A DNA stretch of 64,000 nucleotides from Akkermansiaceae bacterium (GCA_031431855.1 JANPEG010000067.1:23770-87769); one strand, 5' to 3'; positions 40,049 through 48,914 are shown, numbered from the stretch's first letter. The notes: a model not told the origin generated them from the letters alone. Numbers and translations are program-made.

Positions 40049-42031
40049 TCACCAATCTCCAGGAGTTATAATGGCTCCTGGTTTACTGGCGCTGGTACCG
40101 ACCCAAGTGTCATCTTTGCGGGTGTATTCGTATGGTTTTTTACCTGCAAATTGGACGACTAGAGTGCCGTCCTCAATAATTTTCCAAGTGGCTATCCAAT
40201 CTCTATCGAAAATTTCTAATCTGCCATCCGAATGAGCGATCCATTTGCCTTGTCCACCTCCTGAATGTTCGATCCATTTGCCAACGAAGCTGTCAGAGTT
40301 CACTATGCCCTTCATTTTAATGCGAGTCCACTGGGGCTCAGGTGAAAGCTGATTGATCCAAGGCTCTAGATCTTTTGCAAGCGCCGCCTGACTTGTGAGG
40401 CGCTGCTTAAGCTCAGCGTCAGATGTATCTTTGGCAGCGGTTGTGAGACGGGATAGGTAAGCATCACGGATTTTAGCCAGATCGGCATTGTAGGTGGTGT
40501 CTATTGTGGCCTCTGAGACGAGAGCTTGCTTGAACTGAGTAATAAATTTATCAGGACTCTCGGAGGAGTTCGCTACTTCTGGGATTCGGTTATCTACAAT
40601 GTTCTTTTTAAAGTCATCTATGGTCGGACCCTCGCCCTTTTTATTGTCTCTAATAAGACTTCCGAGTTTGCTAATCAAAGAACTGGCATTATCAGCGAGT
40701 TTTTTATCGCGCTTTTTACGTGCATCGCCGATGAGGCCGACGGCGCGTTTGAGTAGTTCGGGGTCGCCGGGGGTGAGATTTTCTTTCGTCTCAGGTTTTG
40801 GATTCAGAGCCACGACTGGTGGCGTCTCTGGCTCCTTGAAAGGCGGCTCGCTAATTTCGTTGCTGGTGATCTCTTTGGGTTGGGTCTCGGGTTCGATGAC
40901 TGGTGGTTTGCTAGGTTCGTTGCTGGTAATTTTTTGGGGTGCTGGTTCGGGTTTCGTGACCGGCGGAGTTTCAGGGACGAGCGCAAGGGTTGCTCCATCG
41001 TCCGATTTAGCTCCATTTGCAATCGCGATACCTTTCTTGATGTCTTCTTTGTTTTCCTGAAGAAGCTGATAGGTGAAAACGGTGACGGCGGCTAGAATGG
41101 CGACGATAAACCATTTGACGATACCAAAGCCGCTACCCTTACTACCAGCGGTTACAGGGACAGGACGAGCTGTAGGAATGACGGGTTTGGGGGCTCCACT
41201 GACGGGTTTGGGAGTTTCGCTGACCGGGGAACTGGTCGTCTTGGTCGTGGTCCACTTTTCCAGATCGTCTGCCATACTTGCGACAGTCTGATAGCGTTTA
41301 GTGGGATCAGCGTTAACTGCCTTGCTCCAGATCGCATCCAGACGATTATTGCCCGTCAGGTGGGTTGGCGGTTCCATGCACCCAGAGGGATCGATACCAG
41401 TGAGAAGCTGGTGGAGAATAACGCCTACCGAGTAGATATCGGCCAGTGGTCCGGCTTGATCGGGATCTTCAAAGACCTCAGGCGCGGTGTAACCGGGGGT
41501 ACCCATCATTAGGCCAGGTTGGTCGGAGTCAGCTGCGTGAGCTAATCCGAAGTCACCGATTTTAGGTTTAGCACTCAGCGTGAGTAAAATGTTAGATGGC
41601 TTGATGTCGCGGTGAACGATGTCGTTTTCGTGGGCGTGGGCAAGTCCATCGCAAATGCCTTTGACAATTTCGACAGATTGTAGCGAATCGATTGCTTGGT
41701 TGTGGGAGGCTCCGTAAAGTGACTCACCATGCACATATTCCATGACGATATATGGCATCCCATCAATCTCACCGAACTCGAATACACTAATAAGATTCGG
41801 GTGGTTGAGGCGAGCCATCGCTTTAGCTTCACTGGCAAACGCTGTGCGAAATTCGGAATCTCCCAATTCCTTCGGGAGAATTTTGATGGCAACATCGCGA
41901 TCTAGTGAGCGCTGACGACCTTTATATACGGCTCCCATCCCTCCCTGGGCGATGAAATCCTCTATATCATACTGCGGCATGAGCTCAGCGAGGTGCTCCG
42001 GATTTGGCGCCTGAAAAGGTGTGTCGCTCAT
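40049..42031 (-). CDS. Hanks-type Ser/Thr protein kinase, membrane-anchored
   Basis: GGMGAVY, VAIK, HRDIKPSN, DFGLA and GTPGYTAPE motifs; one TM segment; Pro-rich linker with ITSNE twice. Confidence 0.93.
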   Translation of the reverse strand: MSDTPFQAPNPEHLAELMPQYDIEDFIAQGGMGAVYKGRQRSLDRDVAIKILPKELGDSEFRTAFASEAKAMARLNHPNLISVFEFGEIDGMPYIVMEYVHGESLYGASHNQAIDSLQSVEIVKGICDGLAHAHENDIVHRDIKPSNILLTLSAKPKIGDFGLAHAADSDQPGLMMGTPGYTAPEVFEDPDQAGPLADIYSVGVILHQLLTGIDPSGCMEPPTHLTGNNRLDAIWSKAVNADPTKRYQTVASMADDLEKWTTTKTTSSPVSETPKPVSGAPKPVIPTARPVPVTAGSKGSGFGIVKWFIVAILAAVTVFTYQLLQENKEDIKKGIAIANGAKSDDGATLALVPETPPVTKPEPAPQKITSNEPSKPPVIEPETQPKEITSNEISEPPFKEPETPPVVALNPKPETKENLTPGDPELLKRAVGLIGDARKKRDKKLADNASSLISKLGSLIRDNKKGEGPTIDDFKKNIVDNRIPEVANSSESPDKFITQFKQALVSEATIDTTYNADLAKIRDAYLSRLTTAAKDTSDAELKQRLTSQAALAKDLEPWINQLSPEPQWTRIKMKGIVNSDSFVGKWIEHSGGGQGKWIAHSDGRLEIFDRDWIATWKIIEDGTLVVQFAGKKPYEYTRKDDTWVGTSASKPGAIITPGDW

Positions 42032-42231
42032 TTGAAATGTTTCTGTTAGTAGAAATCTATATGCTGAACTATCAGAAGGCAAGTTTGTCACAAAGCCTAA
42101 AAGTGTAAATTTTTCGCCTCAAATCTTAACTTTCGCGACTGAGCAACAGTGACGTAAACAAGCTTTGCGAGCTGAAAAGCCAGATAAGCTGGAGTCGATG
42201 AAATCATTAGTAAAAATGACTCGCCCGACAC

Positions 42232-42486: not shown

Positions 42487-44034
42487 CTATCTCTGCGCAT
42501 TGGTTTCCGGTTTCATGCGGAAGACGACGACCCGGCGATCTTGGCTGCGAAGGCTCTCAGTGGTGTTTTCGGGGCGACGTGCTTCGCTTTCGCCATAGCC
42601 GACAGGAAGCAGGCGATACGGGGAGACGCCTTGGCGGATGATTTCTCTAACAATGTATTCGGCGCGCTGCTGGGAAAGGATCATGTTGCTTTCATAACTG
42701 CCTTCGGCGGATGCGTGACCCTCTATGACGAAGCGTTCTTCTTCGGGCATGGCTTTCATCGCGTCGGCCATGACACTGACGACATTATAGGAATATGGAT
42801 CGGAGAACTGGGTGGAGCCTTGAAGAAACAAAATGTCTTCGCTGGAGATCATCGATTTTTCGTCGACCGGATAGGAGACGACCCATGAGTTTTCACCACG
42901 GTAGTTTTCGGGTGGCAGGGGCATGGCGTATTGGGCAGAGTCATCCCGACGATCGTAAAATGTGGGGGCCATTTCCCGAGTGGGTTGGAAGCGAACTTGG
43001 TTCATGGCAAGTGCGGCCATGAGGATAGCGGGGATGGATGAACGTGAATCGTAATGCACGTAGCGACGTCCATCGTTCAGATAGCGCGGGCGGACATATT
43101 CGATGCGCTCGACGACACGTTGTTCATTGCGCGGATCTCTTCTGTCTTCGTGATAAGAGGAATGACGGAAAAACTCCGGAAGTGGTCCCTCAACTTCGCG
43201 GCCACGTAAGCGCTCTTGGTAATAGGTCGTTGCTGCGCGACGTTGGTCGGGTGAAGGCTGGGGTGCGCGCTTTTCTCCTTCATACTGGCGTTCGATGCGC
43301 GGACGAAATCGCTCTTCGCGATCCACTTCGGCGCGGGAAATCCGGCTTTCAGCTCCGAGAATTTCATTGATCACGGATTGTGCATCCTTGCGACCTTCGA
43401 TGCGGGTTTTGCGTTGGTCGAGATCGCGATGCACTTCACGTGTTACATCGCTGACTTTGCTTTCTGCGAGGCGCTCAGGTTCTGTTACCGGGACTTCGAC
43501 GATTTCGGGTTTCGTGGGTCTTTCGCGTTTCTCGGGAGAGGGTTTGGGTAATTCCTTTTTCTCGGCGGTTTCTTTAGCGATTTGCTTAGTTTTATCGGCT
43601 GCTTTTTTTTTGCGTAATGCCGCTTCTGTGGCTAGCTTAGCAGTTGCTTCGGCACGCTCGGTTGCTTCCTTTTCACGCATGGCCGCCTCTTTGGCTAACT
43701 TCGCAGATGCTTCAGCGCGATCGGAAGTTTCTTTGAGGGCTTTTTCAGCCTGTCTTGCAGTTTCTTTGGCGAGTTTTGCTGTTTCTCGCGCAGCTTTTTT
43801 CGCGGTTTCTTCGGCGAGTTTGGCAGTTTCCTTGGCGAGCTTTGCGGCCTCCCTTTCATTCTCGGCAATTTTTTTGGCGAGAATGGCTTCAGCTTTGTCT
43901 TTCTCGGATTTTGCGGCCTCGACTGCTTCAGTCTCAATCTCGTTCTTGTCTTGATCTTGAGCGTGAGCCGCAGGATTCAGCAAGAGGAGGAGAATATTTA
44001 GAAGAATGAACGGGATGTGGTGCTTGGGTTTCAT
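42487..44034 (-). CDS. Exported OmpA-like domain protein with Ala/Lys/Glu coiled-coil repeats
   Basis: Signal peptide; repeated AAKLAKETA units; C-terminal EGHAS..G...N..LS..RA, GYGE and DRRV. Confidence 0.85.
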   Translation of the reverse strand: MKPKHHIPFILLNILLLLLNPAAHAQDQDKNEIETEAVEAAKSEKDKAEAILAKKIAENEREAAKLAKETAKLAEETAKKAARETAKLAKETARQAEKALKETSDRAEASAKLAKEAAMREKEATERAEATAKLATEAALRKKKAADKTKQIAKETAEKKELPKPSPEKRERPTKPEIVEVPVTEPERLAESKVSDVTREVHRDLDQRKTRIEGRKDAQSVINEILGAESRISRAEVDREERFRPRIERQYEGEKRAPQPSPDQRRAATTYYQERLRGREVEGPLPEFFRHSSYHEDRRDPRNEQRVVERIEYVRPRYLNDGRRYVHYDSRSSIPAILMAALAMNQVRFQPTREMAPTFYDRRDDSAQYAMPLPPENYRGENSWVVSYPVDEKSMISSEDILFLQGSTQFSDPYSYNVVSVMADAMKAMPEEERFVIEGHASAEGSYESNMILSQQRAEYIVREIIRQGVSPYRLLPVGYGESEARRPENTTESLRSQDRRVVVFRMKPETNAQR

Positions 44035-44184
44035 TGGAACGGTTGTCGCTTATCGCGTCGCTAACCGATAGCCGTTTCATGAGATTTAACTATGGGGCGT
44101 ATCCCTACTTTGCCCTTTGTAGTGGACGCATCTGCGGTTCTGTTAGGTATTCGGCAGCAGAATGCAGCCGCTCTTTGGTGGGTA

Positions 44185-44251
44185 TCACTCCACAATTATG
44201 GGTGTTCCGACAGTTACATTTTCGAAAAACTTTTCAGCCATGAGGTGGGGC
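44185..44251 (-). repeat. Displaced copy of the L,D-transpeptidase gene 3' end
   Basis: 58/67 nt identical to 48306-48372; encodes PHLMAEKFFENVTVGTPIIVE*. Confidence 0.9.
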
Positions 44252-44311
44252 TTGTTAAAAAAGTTAGAATTTATTCTTGACCAAATTTAGAATCGATAGA
44301 ATCTGCGCTGC

Positions 44312-45400
44312 GTGTCCCCCCCACGTTCGAAATTCTTCGGCCTTTCTTGGCTTGTTTTGTCACTAACCACACTTAGTGCAATTGTCATATTATTGCTTTG
44401 GCTGTTTGAGAATGCTCCTGCTAAAGCGAAAGAAGTCGAAAATTTCTCACAGGCTAATCAACAGGAAATCCCTGAGGCCCCAAAACTAACACCTGCACAG
44501 GTTGAATTCTGGGAATACCTTGAACCATTCAATCGTCTGCCTGAAAATCCCACTGACGAAGCTATCGCCGTTTATAACACCAAAGGCATCGCCCCTGAGT
44601 TCAGGTATTTGAAAGAGTCAAAAACATCCGTCTTAGGCGATATAAAAGGCCTAACCGACCATCGTGAGCTGTTCGTGAAACGTTATCCATGGGTGGGTTC
44701 TATTCTGGATGAATATTCGATCGATATTCCCATTTCCACGGAACGCTTTTCAGGAACTGCCGAAGAGATCGGCAAAAAATATGAGGAATTTATGAATACC
44801 AGTGCCAAGCTCGGAGCAAACGCTACGAACGAAAAAATCTTTGTCACTAACTTCCTAGAAGGTCTTCTTGTGGTGGATTATCTCTATGCTCGTGGCACCA
44901 CAGATGACAAAGATCACGGATTGAAAGTGATAGATGGGGTTTTCCATGCCAATGGTGTCATTCATCCGTTTCACAAAACTCTTGAAAGGAAACTGCTGAC
45001 ACCGGCAAGTATGGATATCGGATGGCCAATCATCGCAGATTACCCCGAACGACTGTGGGCTCTGACTCCGAACCGAATTTGGCGTGGTTTTTTTTATTAT
45101 GGCAGTGCGGGAAAAGTCAATTTCAACAAATGGATGCTGAAGACGGATGGTATTAGAGAAATGCAGAACCCCAATAGGCAGGAATTATACCGAGGACTCA
45201 TTCACAATGAGCAAGTGCGTGTAGGGCTACTCAGTTATTCCATTTACACCATGCATTTGAACGAGGTGGTCAGACCGAGCGACGGATCTGGTCTGATTGT
45301 TATCAAAATTCTCTTCAAACGGCTCTATCCCAAAGATCACGACAAAAAATACAGACAATATCTAGCTCTTCTTGATGCAGCTTACCCTATAATAAAATAA
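44312..45400 (+). CDS. Hypothetical membrane-anchored protein
   Basis: 362-aa ORF with an N-terminal TM segment; first gene of the AT-rich cassette. Confidence 0.75.
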   Translation: MSPPRSKFFGLSWLVLSLTTLSAIVILLLWLFENAPAKAKEVENFSQANQQEIPEAPKLTPAQVEFWEYLEPFNRLPENPTDEAIAVYNTKGIAPEFRYLKESKTSVLGDIKGLTDHRELFVKRYPWVGSILDEYSIDIPISTERFSGTAEEIGKKYEEFMNTSAKLGANATNEKIFVTNFLEGLLVVDYLYARGTTDDKDHGLKVIDGVFHANGVIHPFHKTLERKLLTPASMDIGWPIIADYPERLWALTPNRIWRGFFYYGSAGKVNFNKWMLKTDGIREMQNPNRQELYRGLIHNEQVRVGLLSYSIYTMHLNEVVRPSDGSGLIVIKILFKRLYPKDHDKKYRQYLALLDAAYPIIK

Positions 45401-45412
45401 TACCCCCTAAAT

Positions 45413-47392
45413 ATGATACCCCCCCGCTATTCCCTAATATTAATATTGGCCTCAGCTATATTTACTCAAGTCACAAGTGCTCAGGATTTTCCGTTCGCTA
45501 GAGGAACTTTTAATGATTCTGGAAAACTCGCCCAGTGGTCACTTGAAAGAGTGCGCGCACATCGTGATACGGCTATCGGAAAACTAGACGGACTGAAATC
45601 CAATGCCGAAAAAGACAACGCTGCAGATTCTTCATACCTCGCATATTCTAGCCCCATAGTTGAGGAAAAAGTTTTCGAAACGGAATTAGATTTAACGGAA
45701 GAAAAAGGGGTGGTTTTCATAGCTATTCAAGTCGATGATTTAGCTGCTTTATTGATTGATGAAAAACTCACGGGTAACGAGCCGGCAAATTATAGTCCCG
45801 TTGAAGAAACTTTTGTAGTAGAAGGAACGGCACTTTGGAATAAGGACCGATCCTACAGAGAGTTTTCAAGGTATATTCCAGCTGGTCGAAAATATGATCT
45901 CACGCTCATATATCGTAATACTGCTAATCTAACAGATAAATACAATGGTTTTGTCGACTATGATGGTGTGAATGTTTTTATGATGTATTTGCCCGTTGAA
46001 GTGGTGGAATTGGCGCCAAAACTGATAGATGAGAATGGCAAATCTATACCCAATTCTGAAAAGCCCGCTGCGGCTCCAGAAGCTAATGAAATGGTAGAAA
46101 TTGATCCATTGGCTAGCCCTAAAGCTTTGACCGACGCTTCAAATATACGCATTGCATGGAGAGACATAAAAGTGAAGTTCGACAAGCTTTTGGTAGGTAA
46201 AAAGATTACCTGGTCGATGAACCCGCTATACACACCATCTGTCGTGAAATCCACCGGCCCTGCCGAAGTTTTAGCTCCTGATCCAAAGGGGCCAAGATTC
46301 CGAGGATCATGGGATCATGCAGAAGAAACGGCTTCTAAAGATGCATTTTCACCATCAATCGCCTACGGAAAGCATGACTGGGTTCGTTTGTTACCTACAT
46401 CCGGAAGCACACCAGGGACTGCGACCACTATTGTCAAGGAGGAGGGCTACACTGCAATTCGTGTGAATCTTCCTCCAATTGGATTTAACAAAGCAAAAAT
46501 TAAAATTGCCATCGAAGGCCTTGATTTTGAAATAGATCTGATTGATCTGGTCGTTCCTGCTGTTGTGGTGATTGATCCGGGTCATGGAGGATTGTTAGCT
46601 AGTAAAAAAATTGGCGGATCGAGTCCGAATAATGCATATAGTTACGGGTCAGCGCCACCACCATCTGATCCTAAGAGAAAAAGGAAGATTAATGAAACTA
46701 TGGCTGATTATAGAGCTATATTAGACCCGAGAAAGGCTGACGAAACTCATGAACAGCATTGGGCTAGGCTTAGTGTAAGCCTCGAAAAAGACATATCTCT
46801 TAAATATGGAATTGGTTTAAAGAGTTCGCTACATGAGCGATTTGCTTCGGATTCTAATAAAGCACGCATATTAATGACTAGATCAATTGATAAAAATCTT
46901 GAAATCAGTTCACGAGCCAAGATAGCAAAGTTGAATGGAGCTGATATTTTTTTCAGTATTCATTATAATTCGGATGTGAAAGATTGGGTAAGAGGTCCAG
47001 AAGTAATATTAAGAAGCAAAGTTAATAGTAACTTGAACCATGCTGAAGACATGGCCTTTGCAGAGAGAATTTTGAATACATTGGACTCACGGGTTCCAGA
47101 AGCACCCATCAAAGTTGAAAATACAAACTACAAAGATGAGTTGCCTGATTATCGTGGTATCAAGCAATATCCAACCAACCCTACAGGAGTTGATAAAGAT
47201 AGTTCATTAGGTAATTCTGAAATAGGTCCTTGTAGTCATGCTTGCCTTGCTGAAATTGAGTTTATGACTTCACCTGCTGTCGAAAAATCGGTAGTTTCAG
47301 GCCTAACGGCAGATGATGTTAGCCGCTCTTTGTGTAAAGGTTTTGCTATAGCGATAAGTAATGATATCCATGCAAGGAAAGGGGAGAGATAG
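45413..47392 (+). CDS. Secreted multidomain protein with C-terminal N-acetylmuramoyl-L-alanine amidase (Amidase_3)
   Basis: Signal peptide; VVIDPGHGG, LEKD, MTR, DIFFSIHYNS and LAEIEF carry the full H/E/H/E set. Confidence 0.85.
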   Translation: MIPPRYSLILILASAIFTQVTSAQDFPFARGTFNDSGKLAQWSLERVRAHRDTAIGKLDGLKSNAEKDNAADSSYLAYSSPIVEEKVFETELDLTEEKGVVFIAIQVDDLAALLIDEKLTGNEPANYSPVEETFVVEGTALWNKDRSYREFSRYIPAGRKYDLTLIYRNTANLTDKYNGFVDYDGVNVFMMYLPVEVVELAPKLIDENGKSIPNSEKPAAAPEANEMVEIDPLASPKALTDASNIRIAWRDIKVKFDKLLVGKKITWSMNPLYTPSVVKSTGPAEVLAPDPKGPRFRGSWDHAEETASKDAFSPSIAYGKHDWVRLLPTSGSTPGTATTIVKEEGYTAIRVNLPPIGFNKAKIKIAIEGLDFEIDLIDLVVPAVVVIDPGHGGLLASKKIGGSSPNNAYSYGSAPPPSDPKRKRKINETMADYRAILDPRKADETHEQHWARLSVSLEKDISLKYGIGLKSSLHERFASDSNKARILMTRSIDKNLEISSRAKIAKLNGADIFFSIHYNSDVKDWVRGPEVILRSKVNSNLNHAEDMAFAERILNTLDSRVPEAPIKVENTNYKDELPDYRGIKQYPTNPTGVDKDSSLGNSEIGPCSHACLAEIEFMTSPAVEKSVVSGLTADDVSRSLCKGFAIAISNDIHARKGER

Positions 47393-47419
47393 AATTCAAA
47401 ATTACAAATAAATATTTAT

Positions 47420-48223
47420 ATGAAAAAAAATCAAATTATATTAATAATCGTCGGAATTTTGGTTATTTCGTTTGGATGTTGGATGAAAATCAAAATTAAT
47501 CAGCATTTTGAAAATACTTTAAAATCTGAAACAAAGAATAATAAAGAGAAACTGAAACTAACTAATAATATTTTTTTGATTAAAACTGATATATCGGATC
47601 AAAATGGAAACTTACGTGAGATTGATTCGGATCATCTTCAATCATTCCGAGTTTCTGGAGATTCTATATTTAAAGGTGATAGGTTAATTTGGAACAGTGA
47701 AAAAGAGCATATAAACTTTGTGCAAGAGAGTCCTGATGGCAGTATGCTACTATTTTATAAGCAAATCTCTGATAAATACGTCATTTTAGGACAACTTGAT
47801 GAAAAATACGAAGAGTTGACTATCGAACTGCCTGGACGAGACAAGGCCACTCGCGAGGATGGTCGTTATTGGGTAGGTAACGATATCTTAATAAGTGAAT
47901 ACATTGATGATTTCGATCCTGTTCCCAAAGGACATGGCAATGAGGGATGGATAAAGGGGAGTATATTATACGCCTATGATTTGAAGAATAAAACTTATGG
48001 TGAACTTAAGCTTGAAGATCTTTTGAGCTCTGAGCTTGTTCAATACAAAATTCTAACTGATGAATATGAACCTTCTTATTCTTATAAACTTCCGATTTTA
48101 CGATACTACCGGATAAAAGGCATTACCGACGAAGGCGTGATATTTTTAACATCAGTTGACACAAGCCAGCCACTGGGAGGTAATCCGAAGGATGAAGGTG
48201 CATTTGAGATCAAGGTGAAATAA
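47420..48223 (+). CDS. AT-rich hypothetical exported protein (candidate immunity or partner)
   Basis: N-terminal hydrophobic anchor; beta-rich pattern (SPDGSMLLF); directly follows the amidase gene. Confidence 0.7.
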   Translation: MKKNQIILIIVGILVISFGCWMKIKINQHFENTLKSETKNNKEKLKLTNNIFLIKTDISDQNGNLREIDSDHLQSFRVSGDSIFKGDRLIWNSEKEHINFVQESPDGSMLLFYKQISDKYVILGQLDEKYEELTIELPGRDKATREDGRYWVGNDILISEYIDDFDPVPKGHGNEGWIKGSILYAYDLKNKTYGELKLEDLLSSELVQYKILTDEYEPSYSYKLPILRYYRIKGITDEGVIFLTSVDTSQPLGGNPKDEGAFEIKVK

Positions 48224-48242
48224 TTTACGGCCTTAAAGCATC

Positions 48243-48280
48243 GGCGCCCCGACAGATCGGCGACCCCCGACAGATCGGGG
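48243..48280. repeat. Tandem CCCCGACAGATCGG hairpin repeat
   Basis: 14-mer at 48247 and 48265, between the converging stop codons. Confidence 0.65.
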
Positions 48281-48305
48281 TAAACGAAAGATCGCCGCCA
48301 CGAAA

Positions 48306-48914
48306 TCACTCCACAATCACGGGTGTCCCGACGGTCACGTTTTCGAAGAACTTTTCTGCCATGTGGTGGGGCATTCTAACGCAACCGTGCGATGCGGCGT
48401 AGCCTGGGAGGTAGCCGGTGTGCATTCCGATGGCGTTATTGAAGCGCATGAAATATGGCATGGGGGCATTGTAGAAGGCTTGGCCGGGGCCGACTTTATC
48501 TACGCGGATATCCGCGCTGTCATTAATGACAGCTCCGGTGGTCTTGTCTTTGATGACGCCGTAGAGAGTTGATTTGTGGTCTTTGTTTTTCTGGATGATT
48601 TTGTAATTGCCCGGAGGCGTGCCGGAATCTTCTTTTCCGGAGGAGATTTTTGAAACCCCAACGAGTTTGTTGCCCTTGTAAAAATAGGCTTTTTGATGAG
48701 TGCGATTGATCTTGATGACCGATGGGCCTTGCGTGTCATCGCCTTCCCAGTAAGAGACATCATCGGGAATAGCAGGCGCTGGAGTGCCGGGGCCACCGGA
48801 GGTGGGTCGATGGATTGGGCCACCGATGCCGGCGAGGTAATCGGAGCCTGGAGGTTTGGTATCCACGCAGGAAACGAGGAGGATCGTGCAGGCGAGTAGA
48901 TAAAAGTATTTCAT
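48306..48914 (-). CDS. L,D-transpeptidase (YkuD) lipoprotein
   Basis: Lipobox LVSC; TPPGNYKI, MPYFMRF and IGMHTG...ASHGCVRM (HxGC catalytic motif). Confidence 0.93.
   Translation of the reverse strand: MKYFYLLACTILLVSCVDTKPPGSDYLAGIGGPIHRPTSGGPGTPAPAIPDDVSYWEGDDTQGPSVIKINRTHQKAYFYKGNKLVGVSKISSGKEDSGTPPGNYKIIQKNKDHKSTLYGVIKDKTTGAVINDSADIRVDKVGPGQAFYNAPMPYFMRFNNAIGMHTGYLPGYAASHGCVRMPHHMAEKFFENVTVGTPVIVE

Follow-up and report, generated by a model that had tools for sequence, protein, structure and literature searches.

A duplicated L,D-transpeptidase gene end bracketing an amidase cassette in an uncultured freshwater Akkermansiaceae bacterium

Flexible genomic islets lie between conserved core genes and are replaced through recombination in their flanks. 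Here, we compare such islets, and two other described situations, with a locus in which two copies of the 3′ end of ldt, an L,D-transpeptidase gene, bracket a three-gene amidase cassette. The locus lies in a 64,000-nucleotide (nt) stretch of DNA from an Akkermansiaceae bacterium (GCA_031431855.1 JANPEG010000067.1:23770-87769), the whole of which we call the window and in which positions are counted from the first letter. In Escherichia coli, the prophage e14 sits in icd and leaves behind an orphaned icdC fragment, according to a passage in PMC13626634 that cites Hill et al. 1989 (PMC210168); as far as that passage goes, e14 encodes both an integrase and an excisionase, and SOS induction triggers its excision. 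In homology-facilitated illegitimate recombination, which is well established, one end of an incoming fragment recombines in homologous sequence and the other is joined illegitimately (PMC3240628); the process is known from laboratory crosses and usually comes with a deletion of recipient DNA.

The locus resembles each of these in part. As in the e14/icd arrangement outlined in the passage cited, a protein gene stays intact across an insertion at its 3′ end, and the displaced native end is stranded on the far side with mainly synonymous differences; unlike e14, the insert here is a 4-kb, three-gene segment without a recombinase, at a site used in this way in only 1 of 104 loci. Homology-facilitated illegitimate recombination would supply one homologous end and one nonhomologous join without any element enzyme (PMC3240628), and it would account for a unique scar in a mosaic of related-species alleles; the difference is that the join here lies upstream of the end of homology, leaving 67 nt duplicated. 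With flexible islets the locus shares conserved flanks (corA-ldt, the block upstream of an ompA-like gene, g39k, and g37k), cargo that varies or is lacking altogether, GC-poor cargo, and mosaic flank alleles, whereas the duplicated piece of a flanking gene that is present here is not normally found in them. The explanation toward which we lean, with some reserve, is that a single recombination event between related lineages, in a variable islet downstream of ldt, left the repeat behind as a scar.

Two ldt ends around a three-gene insert

The complete ldt gene lies on the minus strand at 48306..48914 and encodes 202 amino acids (aa) from an ATG at 48914 (Pfam YkuD, E 1.5e-22, residues 65 to 201). 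Its last 67 nt (48306-48372, minus strand) recur in the same orientation at 44185..44251, also on the minus strand, as the 21 final codons and the stop codon of an ldt allele; this second copy, the orphan tip, is recognized by the repeat match, by its alignment with the relative G207, and by having two private base states only. The two copies agree at 58 of 67 nt, or 59 of 68 if one further matching base (44184/48305) is counted, and the nine mismatches fall at codon positions 2, 3, 3, 3, 3, 3, 3, 1, and 3. Recomputation thus reproduced exactly the 58/67-nt identity and the seven third-position mismatches reported in the initial annotation of the window. The encoded minus-strand peptides are PHLMAEKFFENVTVGTPIIVE plus stop at 44185-44251 and PHHMAEKFFENVTVGTPVIVE plus stop at 48306-48372.

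Homology between the copies ends sharply on both sides, immediately past the stop codon and at 44251/44252, within the Met codon before PH; both copies have GCCCCACC in common at their inner boundary. The break in the orphaned allele falls four codons past the catalytic Cys (…SHGCVRM/PH…) and would remove the end of the YkuD domain. Overall identity over the 67 nt is 87%, and the longest exact run between the tips is 13 nt. A search of the 3.32-Mb assembly with the 67-mer, as proposed in the initial annotation, returned just two copies (100% and 87% identity, E 6.5e-17), the next match having an E value of 2.35. The copies are 4121 nt apart, and the orphan tip sits upstream of the ompA-like gene, its stop codon separated by 150 nt from the ATG of that gene, just as annotated.

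These direct repeats of the ldt 3′ end bracket an insert and leave the ldt gene itself intact. The enclosed DNA has a GC content of 40.4%, against 50.7% for the genome, and contains three plus-strand open reading frames (ORFs) of 362, 659, and 267 aa, here called A362, B659, and C267, the second with an Amidase_3 domain; the description of an AT-rich, three-gene amidase cassette between the copies therefore stands. So does the claimed lack of an integrase: no recombinase family is matched by any of the three ORFs, the nearest Phage_integrase (PF00589) match lies ~64 kb away on the contig, and the contig carries no serine recombinase (PF00239). Seven tyrosine and two serine recombinases are encoded elsewhere in the genome. 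Since only ~175 nt of the 4.05-kb insert is noncoding, there is no space in it for a decayed recombinase. A transposon or insertion sequence was considered and rejected, the cassette having no transposase domain and its ends no terminal inverted repeats.

The interval downstream of ldt in relatives

We found ldt orthologues in all 41 relatives tested, in each case adjoining a corA-like gene. The pair of ldt and this divergent gene is conserved across the genus, and what follows ldt varies. The nearest ldt alleles belong to seven species with 81 to 87% nucleotide identity. Two relatives have the empty site predicted in the initial annotation, with ldt followed by ompA after 112 bp in G094 and after 154 bp in G207. 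Others carry inserts: G093 and G138 share one of 2.5 to 3.1 kb that encodes small secreted proteins or lipoproteins, and G139 and G084 share another of 1.9 kb with a 510-aa protein. These two inserts are unrelated to each other and to the cassette described here, and both start right after the ldt stop codon. They have 46 to 47% GC, against 49 to 51% in their loci.

The far limit of the interval is equally constant. In species with ompA, the variable segment ends at one conserved block before that gene (AAAGTAGGGrTACGCCCCAT), which is present in G094, G207, G093, G138, G139, and G084; in the window this block, AAAGTAGGGATACGCCCCAT at 44091-44113, marks the right-hand limit of the variable segment as it does in all relatives. 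G076 and G075, also within the 81 to 87% range, lack ompA and have ldt followed after ~200 bp by g39k, and in more distant species ldt is directly followed by g39k, a kinase gene, or g37k. Because empty sites and unrelated inserts occupy one interval with common limits, the site just downstream of ldt is, on this comparative evidence, a real variable-gene hotspot, or flexible islet.

The initial annotation had proposed a cassette-exchange hotspot anchored in the 3′ end of ldt. The hotspot is upheld by the empty sites and alternative inserts; the tip as a recurrent anchor is not. A low-stringency nucleotide search of all fetched loci found a second ldt tip at none of the 103 other tip-holding loci (104 with this genome), and scans with peptide patterns agree. 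Different cassettes bearing the same tip duplication, expected if the tip were the anchor, are thus missing from these 103 loci, where other inserts begin past the stop codon. No homologue of A362, B659, or C267 occurs at this site in the relatives, and no other copy of the cassette was found in 209 genomes of the genus or in a large protein collection. A metagenome scan with ldt gave best relatives of 88 to 93% amino acid identity, none of which carries the cassette; the amidase protein B659 was on no other contig in these searches, its best relative being 57% identical. Among the loci compared, then, the tip duplication is unique to this genome, and the evidence favors a one-off scar over a tip-anchored exchange system.

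The alternative insert of G138 (L094:1179-4340) and G093 (L063:1501-4041) encodes only small proteins, of 127 to 193 aa, from genes convergent with ldt. Most of these proteins carry a signal peptide, a lipobox, or a membrane segment; the genes are possibly of an orphan immunity type.

Origin of the stranded tip

The orphan tip, the spacer behind it, and the whole of ompA align with G207 in a single alignment (83.8% identity over 1761 nt, window 44251-42493), in which even the hairpin within the spacer is collinear, and the G207 ldt allele reads PHL, as the orphan tip does. Given this one collinear alignment through the ldt end, the spacer, and ompA, the orphan tip is evidently the end of an ldt allele still joined to its own natural downstream DNA. 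At the complete gene, the 10 nt directly past the stop codon (TTTCGTGGCG, coding strand) are identical to the post-stop sequence of G094, and the in-gene tip has no private base state relative to the clade's alleles. Both tips look like natural allele ends that derive from two locus types, the in-gene tip from a G094 type and the orphan from a G207 type. The surrounding region is a mosaic in the same sense: ldt is closest to G094 (87% nucleotide identity), ompA to G207 (84%), and the segment from the kinase gene to g39k to G138 (92%), with window positions 42185-39014 being 91.7% identical to the latter.

Over the last 66 coding bases, the orphan tip differs from functional ldt alleles of the clade by 7 to 14 nt and from the in-gene tip by 9 nt; pairs of clade orthologues are a mean of 9.2 nt apart, with 79% of their differences at third positions. 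Only two base states are private to the orphan, one synonymous and one that changes Val to Ile. With so few private states, the orphan was in all appearance a working allele until recently, and the claim that it is not a randomly decayed duplicate holds. Neutral decay had been suggested by the direction of the differences, seven of nine being G/C in the gene and A/T in the orphan, and was rejected since most orphan states also occur in functional alleles of relatives. A distance equal to the orthologue spread, together with two private states, implies that the tips had already diverged by ~13% before joining and that the joining is recent, also relative to the divergence of these species.

We infer that the chromosome incorporated a linear fragment of DNA originating in a related Akkermansiaceae lineage. 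At one end, this fragment would have recombined in homologous sequence, and at the other, it would have been joined illegitimately at 44251/44252, inside an ldt allele and four codons past its catalytic Cys, thereby bringing two already diverged ldt 3′ ends into one chromosome. We leave the direction of transfer at two options: the fragment may have comprised ldt and the toxin cassette and entered a recipient whose empty site was of the G207 type, or it may have comprised an ldt tip, spacer, and ompA and come to lie beside a resident cassette. Selection would act in either case, only recombinants that keep a complete ldt surviving; the break costs the allele the end of its YkuD domain, and a complete gene would be needed for survival, so that a full ldt and a stranded tip would be found together. 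DNA uptake is possible, since a ComEC homologue is present in the genome.

Several points weigh against such a scar. No clear crossover is seen inside ldt near the tip, sliding-window identity against 12 alleles being noisy and mosaic, and no conspecific genome or contig turned up in the metagenome and protein-collection scans. The junction at 44251/44252 is abrupt, and an illegitimate join there, with any microhomology, stays a matter of inference. For a random break, the end of the cassette is neatly placed, only ~25 nt upstream of its promoter-like region. ComEC is widespread and no proof of competence. Finally, the overall geometry is exactly that of e14/icd, with a complete gene, an insert, an orphaned native tip, and native downstream DNA.

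That geometry is the main argument for the strongest alternative, namely that the cassette is a remnant or a cis-mobilizable form of an e14/icd-like integrative element in the ldt 3′ end, which carried a replacement end and whose integrase was lost or acts in trans. The series of complete gene, insert, orphaned C-terminal fragment, and native DNA corresponds to that of e14, icd, and icdC in the passage cited above (PMC13626634). The contiguity of the orphan with a G207-type native spacer and ompA also speaks for such an element, as do the GCCCCACC shared at the inner boundary and the makeup of the insert, a compact transcription unit with sharp ends; the seven tyrosine recombinases elsewhere in the genome could act on it. 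However, the 4.05 kb contains neither a recombinase nor room for a remnant of one, none of the 103 other ldt-tip loci is occupied in this way, and the other hotspot inserts sit past the stop codon. The in-gene tip with its 10 post-stop nt moreover looks like a natural G094-type allele and not a long-evolved mimic, and neither the 209 genomes of the genus nor the large protein collection holds a second copy of the cassette. We consider this alternative unlikely. Its more specific form, an integrase-free, cis-mobilizable unit whose attachment site mimics the last 21 codons of ldt and which is moved by a recombinase encoded elsewhere, strikes us as distinctly doubtful; if true, the cassette would dock in an essential-looking part of a cell wall gene without harm.

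A Campbell-type single crossover, catalyzed by RecA between the chromosome and circular or tandem DNA with an ldt tip and the cassette, would yield direct repeats that end sharply at either side, as observed, and sequence of a natural ldt-downstream type behind the in-gene tip; its repeats could in turn release a 4.1-kb circle. Efficient RecA recombination needs roughly 25 to 30 exact bases, and the longest exact run here, 13 nt in repeats that are 87% identical over 67 nt, is far below that. The orphan being almost undecayed, the tips already differed to this extent at joining. A prior circle of the same structure would be required as well. These points make such a crossover improbable. With the repeats at 87% identity and no exact run longer than 13 nt, the excision of the cassette as a circle without a dedicated enzyme, which the initial annotation had raised, likewise looks unlikely.

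An assembly chimera, in which the ldt loci of two co-occurring species were misjoined, has some grounds in the nature of the data: the assembly resembles a metagenome-assembled genome (MAG), with 118 contigs and an estimated contamination of 3.6%, and many related species of the genus co-occur in lake metagenomes. Chimeric joins in assemblies form at shared exact words, however, and there is no shared sequence at the 44251/44252 junction, the tips themselves sharing at most 13 exact bases; the cassette is also unique in the genome, which makes the path through it unambiguous. We therefore regard a misjoin as very improbable. Least credible of all, and hardly worth retaining, is a duplication of the ldt tip in place, for example as a long target-site duplication, followed by divergence: direct repeats do bracket an insert, but tips ~13% apart at joining exclude it, nearly all orphan states are natural polymorphisms of functional clade alleles with two private ones only, the mismatches lie at third positions where a noncoding copy would decay everywhere, and the downstream spacers differ in type, G207 for the orphan and G094 for the complete gene.

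The cassette family, the flanking genes, and implications

The first cassette gene, A362 (44312..45400, plus strand), encodes a membrane-anchored, all-alpha protein to which no function is assigned. The sequence has no match in Pfam, NCBIfam, or the PDB, and its confident AlphaFold2 model (predicted local distance difference test score, 82.5), which is all-alpha, has no fold match in the PDB at an E value of ≤0.001. B659 (45413..47392, plus strand) is a secreted, modular protein with a signal peptide, a family-specific N-domain at residues ~1 to 200, and a middle domain at ~200 to 440; its C terminus is an N-acetylmuramoyl-L-alanine amidase domain (Pfam Amidase_3, E 2e-13, residues 385 to 629), with weak matches to PDB entries 1jwq and 3ne8. 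C267 (47420..48223, plus strand) is a small protein encoded at 34% GC, with an N-terminal hydrophobic segment that ends in a lipobox-like FGC; it has no sequence match in Pfam, NCBIfam, or the PDB and is a putative immunity protein. The junction and the cassette's own upstream region take up 44252..44311 (plus strand), as delimited by aligning them with the DNA in front of two paralogues on contig C23; homology to other cassette copies begins at ~44276 (AATTTATTCTTGAC), ~25 nt from the junction. A scan for consensus promoters and terminators returned nothing that exceeds shuffled expectation.

Pairs of an A gene and a B N-domain occur five times in the genome: in this cassette (window 44312-48223), in two tandem copies on C23 (C23:8833-17135), once on C42 (C42:39132-40818), and once on C44 (C44:3-1421), where the contig end cuts it off. 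The four A362 paralogues are 57 to 59% and 31 to 33% identical to it, and each is followed by a B N-domain. The N-domain of B659 is 41 to 53% identical to those of the C23 (two copies) and C42 paralogues, which carry other C termini, and 28% identical to the truncated copy on C44. In place of the amidase, the B paralogues end in parts marked by GLFQVTG, HPDG…GTSGCIGI, or HEVGHTLGLDH; by motif only, the first resembles lytic transglycosylases, the second resembles YkuD enzymes, and the third is that of a metzincin. Conversely, the middle and amidase module of B659 is found elsewhere behind other N termini. In this cassette and the two C23 copies, the B gene is followed by a gene for a small exported protein, unrelated from one cassette to another, so that C267 matches in position the proteins C1 and C2 behind the paralogous B genes on C23. 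Pairs of A and B genes are also found in other Akkermansiaceae and Verrucomicrobiota MAGs.

Polymorphic toxins with peptidoglycan-degrading C-terminal domains, of which type VI amidase effectors with periplasmic immunity proteins are examples, likewise combine a constant N-terminal part with interchangeable C-terminal enzymes, each followed by an unrelated small exported protein. The A-B-C family differs from them in that no known secretion-system marker domain was found in it and in its constant partner A, the uncharacterized, all-alpha, membrane-anchored protein. The family looks like a polymorphic toxin-immunity system aimed at peptidoglycan, and the cassette in the window is most likely composed of a secreted peptidoglycan amidase toxin (B), an immunity protein (C), and an accessory protein (A).

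A link between the cassette family and ldt genes was considered and rejected, the contexts of the paralogues being different. The C23 cassettes have no tip duplications, a 2.2-kb tandem repeat being all that was found there. Because the paralogues occupy other contexts, the place of this cassette beside a cell wall gene looks coincidental. Another Akkermansiaceae MAG has an A homologue (64% identical) on its own, with no B gene behind it, immediately downstream of a gene for an unrelated 375-aa YkuD-domain protein (L212:6476-8933), an adjacency that we also take as coincidence.

Between C267 and ldt lies a GC-rich spacer (48224..48305, no strand assigned), in which the 10 nt TTTCGTGGCG after the ldt stop codon are followed by nested hairpins of the repetitive extragenic palindromic (REP)-like kind, with CCCCGATCTGTCGGGG occurring twice. 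Elsewhere in the genome, four further copies of the element at 48258-48303 show 82 to 84% identity; on contig C42, one of these lies upstream of another amidase-type B gene, at a distance of ~1.3 kb. The G207-type spacer between the orphan tip and ompA (44035..44184, minus strand), which is collinear with the G207 intergenic region, contains a REP-like hairpin of its own at ~44150-44178, of which the genome has at least six more copies at ~92% identity. Two different REP-type hairpin repeats (48258-48303 and 44150-44178) thus stand at opposite edges of the variable segment. At its ldt edge, the 8 nt after the stop codon in G207 (TTCGCCAC, L095:2358-2375) are the reverse complement of those in G094 (L056:9613-9630) and in this window, where the matching 8-mer, GTGGCGAA, lies inside TTTCGTGGCG. 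The relation could be fortuitous or reflect a short inversion at the hotspot's edge.

The ompA-like gene (42487..44034, minus strand) encodes a 515-aa protein whose N-terminal part is a repetitive coiled coil and whose C terminus carries an OmpA domain (Pfam OmpA, E 2.7e-15). It is present in 7 of 81 genomes of the genus, its closest relative being that of G207 (85.6% amino acid identity) and the others 43 to 67% identical. The coiled-coil part (window 43588-43888) is built of Ala-, Glu-, and Lys-rich repeats of 33 nt (11 codons) and is the most variable portion of the protein between species (43 to 86% amino acid identity overall); the G084 ompA is internally deleted. Next to it, a Ser/Thr protein kinase gene (40049..42091, minus strand; Pfam Pkinase, E 1.9e-46) forms a further present-or-absent segment, being found in G138, G084, and G058 and missing from G094, G207, G093, and G139. 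Since close species differ in whether they have the kinase and ompA genes at all, the variable region here extends over ~8 kb and consists of several independent pieces.

Taken as a set, the empty sites, the three unrelated inserts, and the one insert that left a stranded gene end show the turnover of accessory genes beside a conserved gene at base resolution in uncultured freshwater Akkermansiaceae. The stranded ldt end serves as a time stamp, showing an origin of the joined alleles in different lineages and a recent join. The locus also calls for caution: foreign-looking genes between two copies of a gene tip give the appearance of an attachment site, yet such a structure can form without the machinery of a mobile element. 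We regard it as a clear, well-resolved example of an already known kind of genome change. The A-B-C cargo family, uncharacterized and with a new accessory protein, may reward study more than the scar itself.

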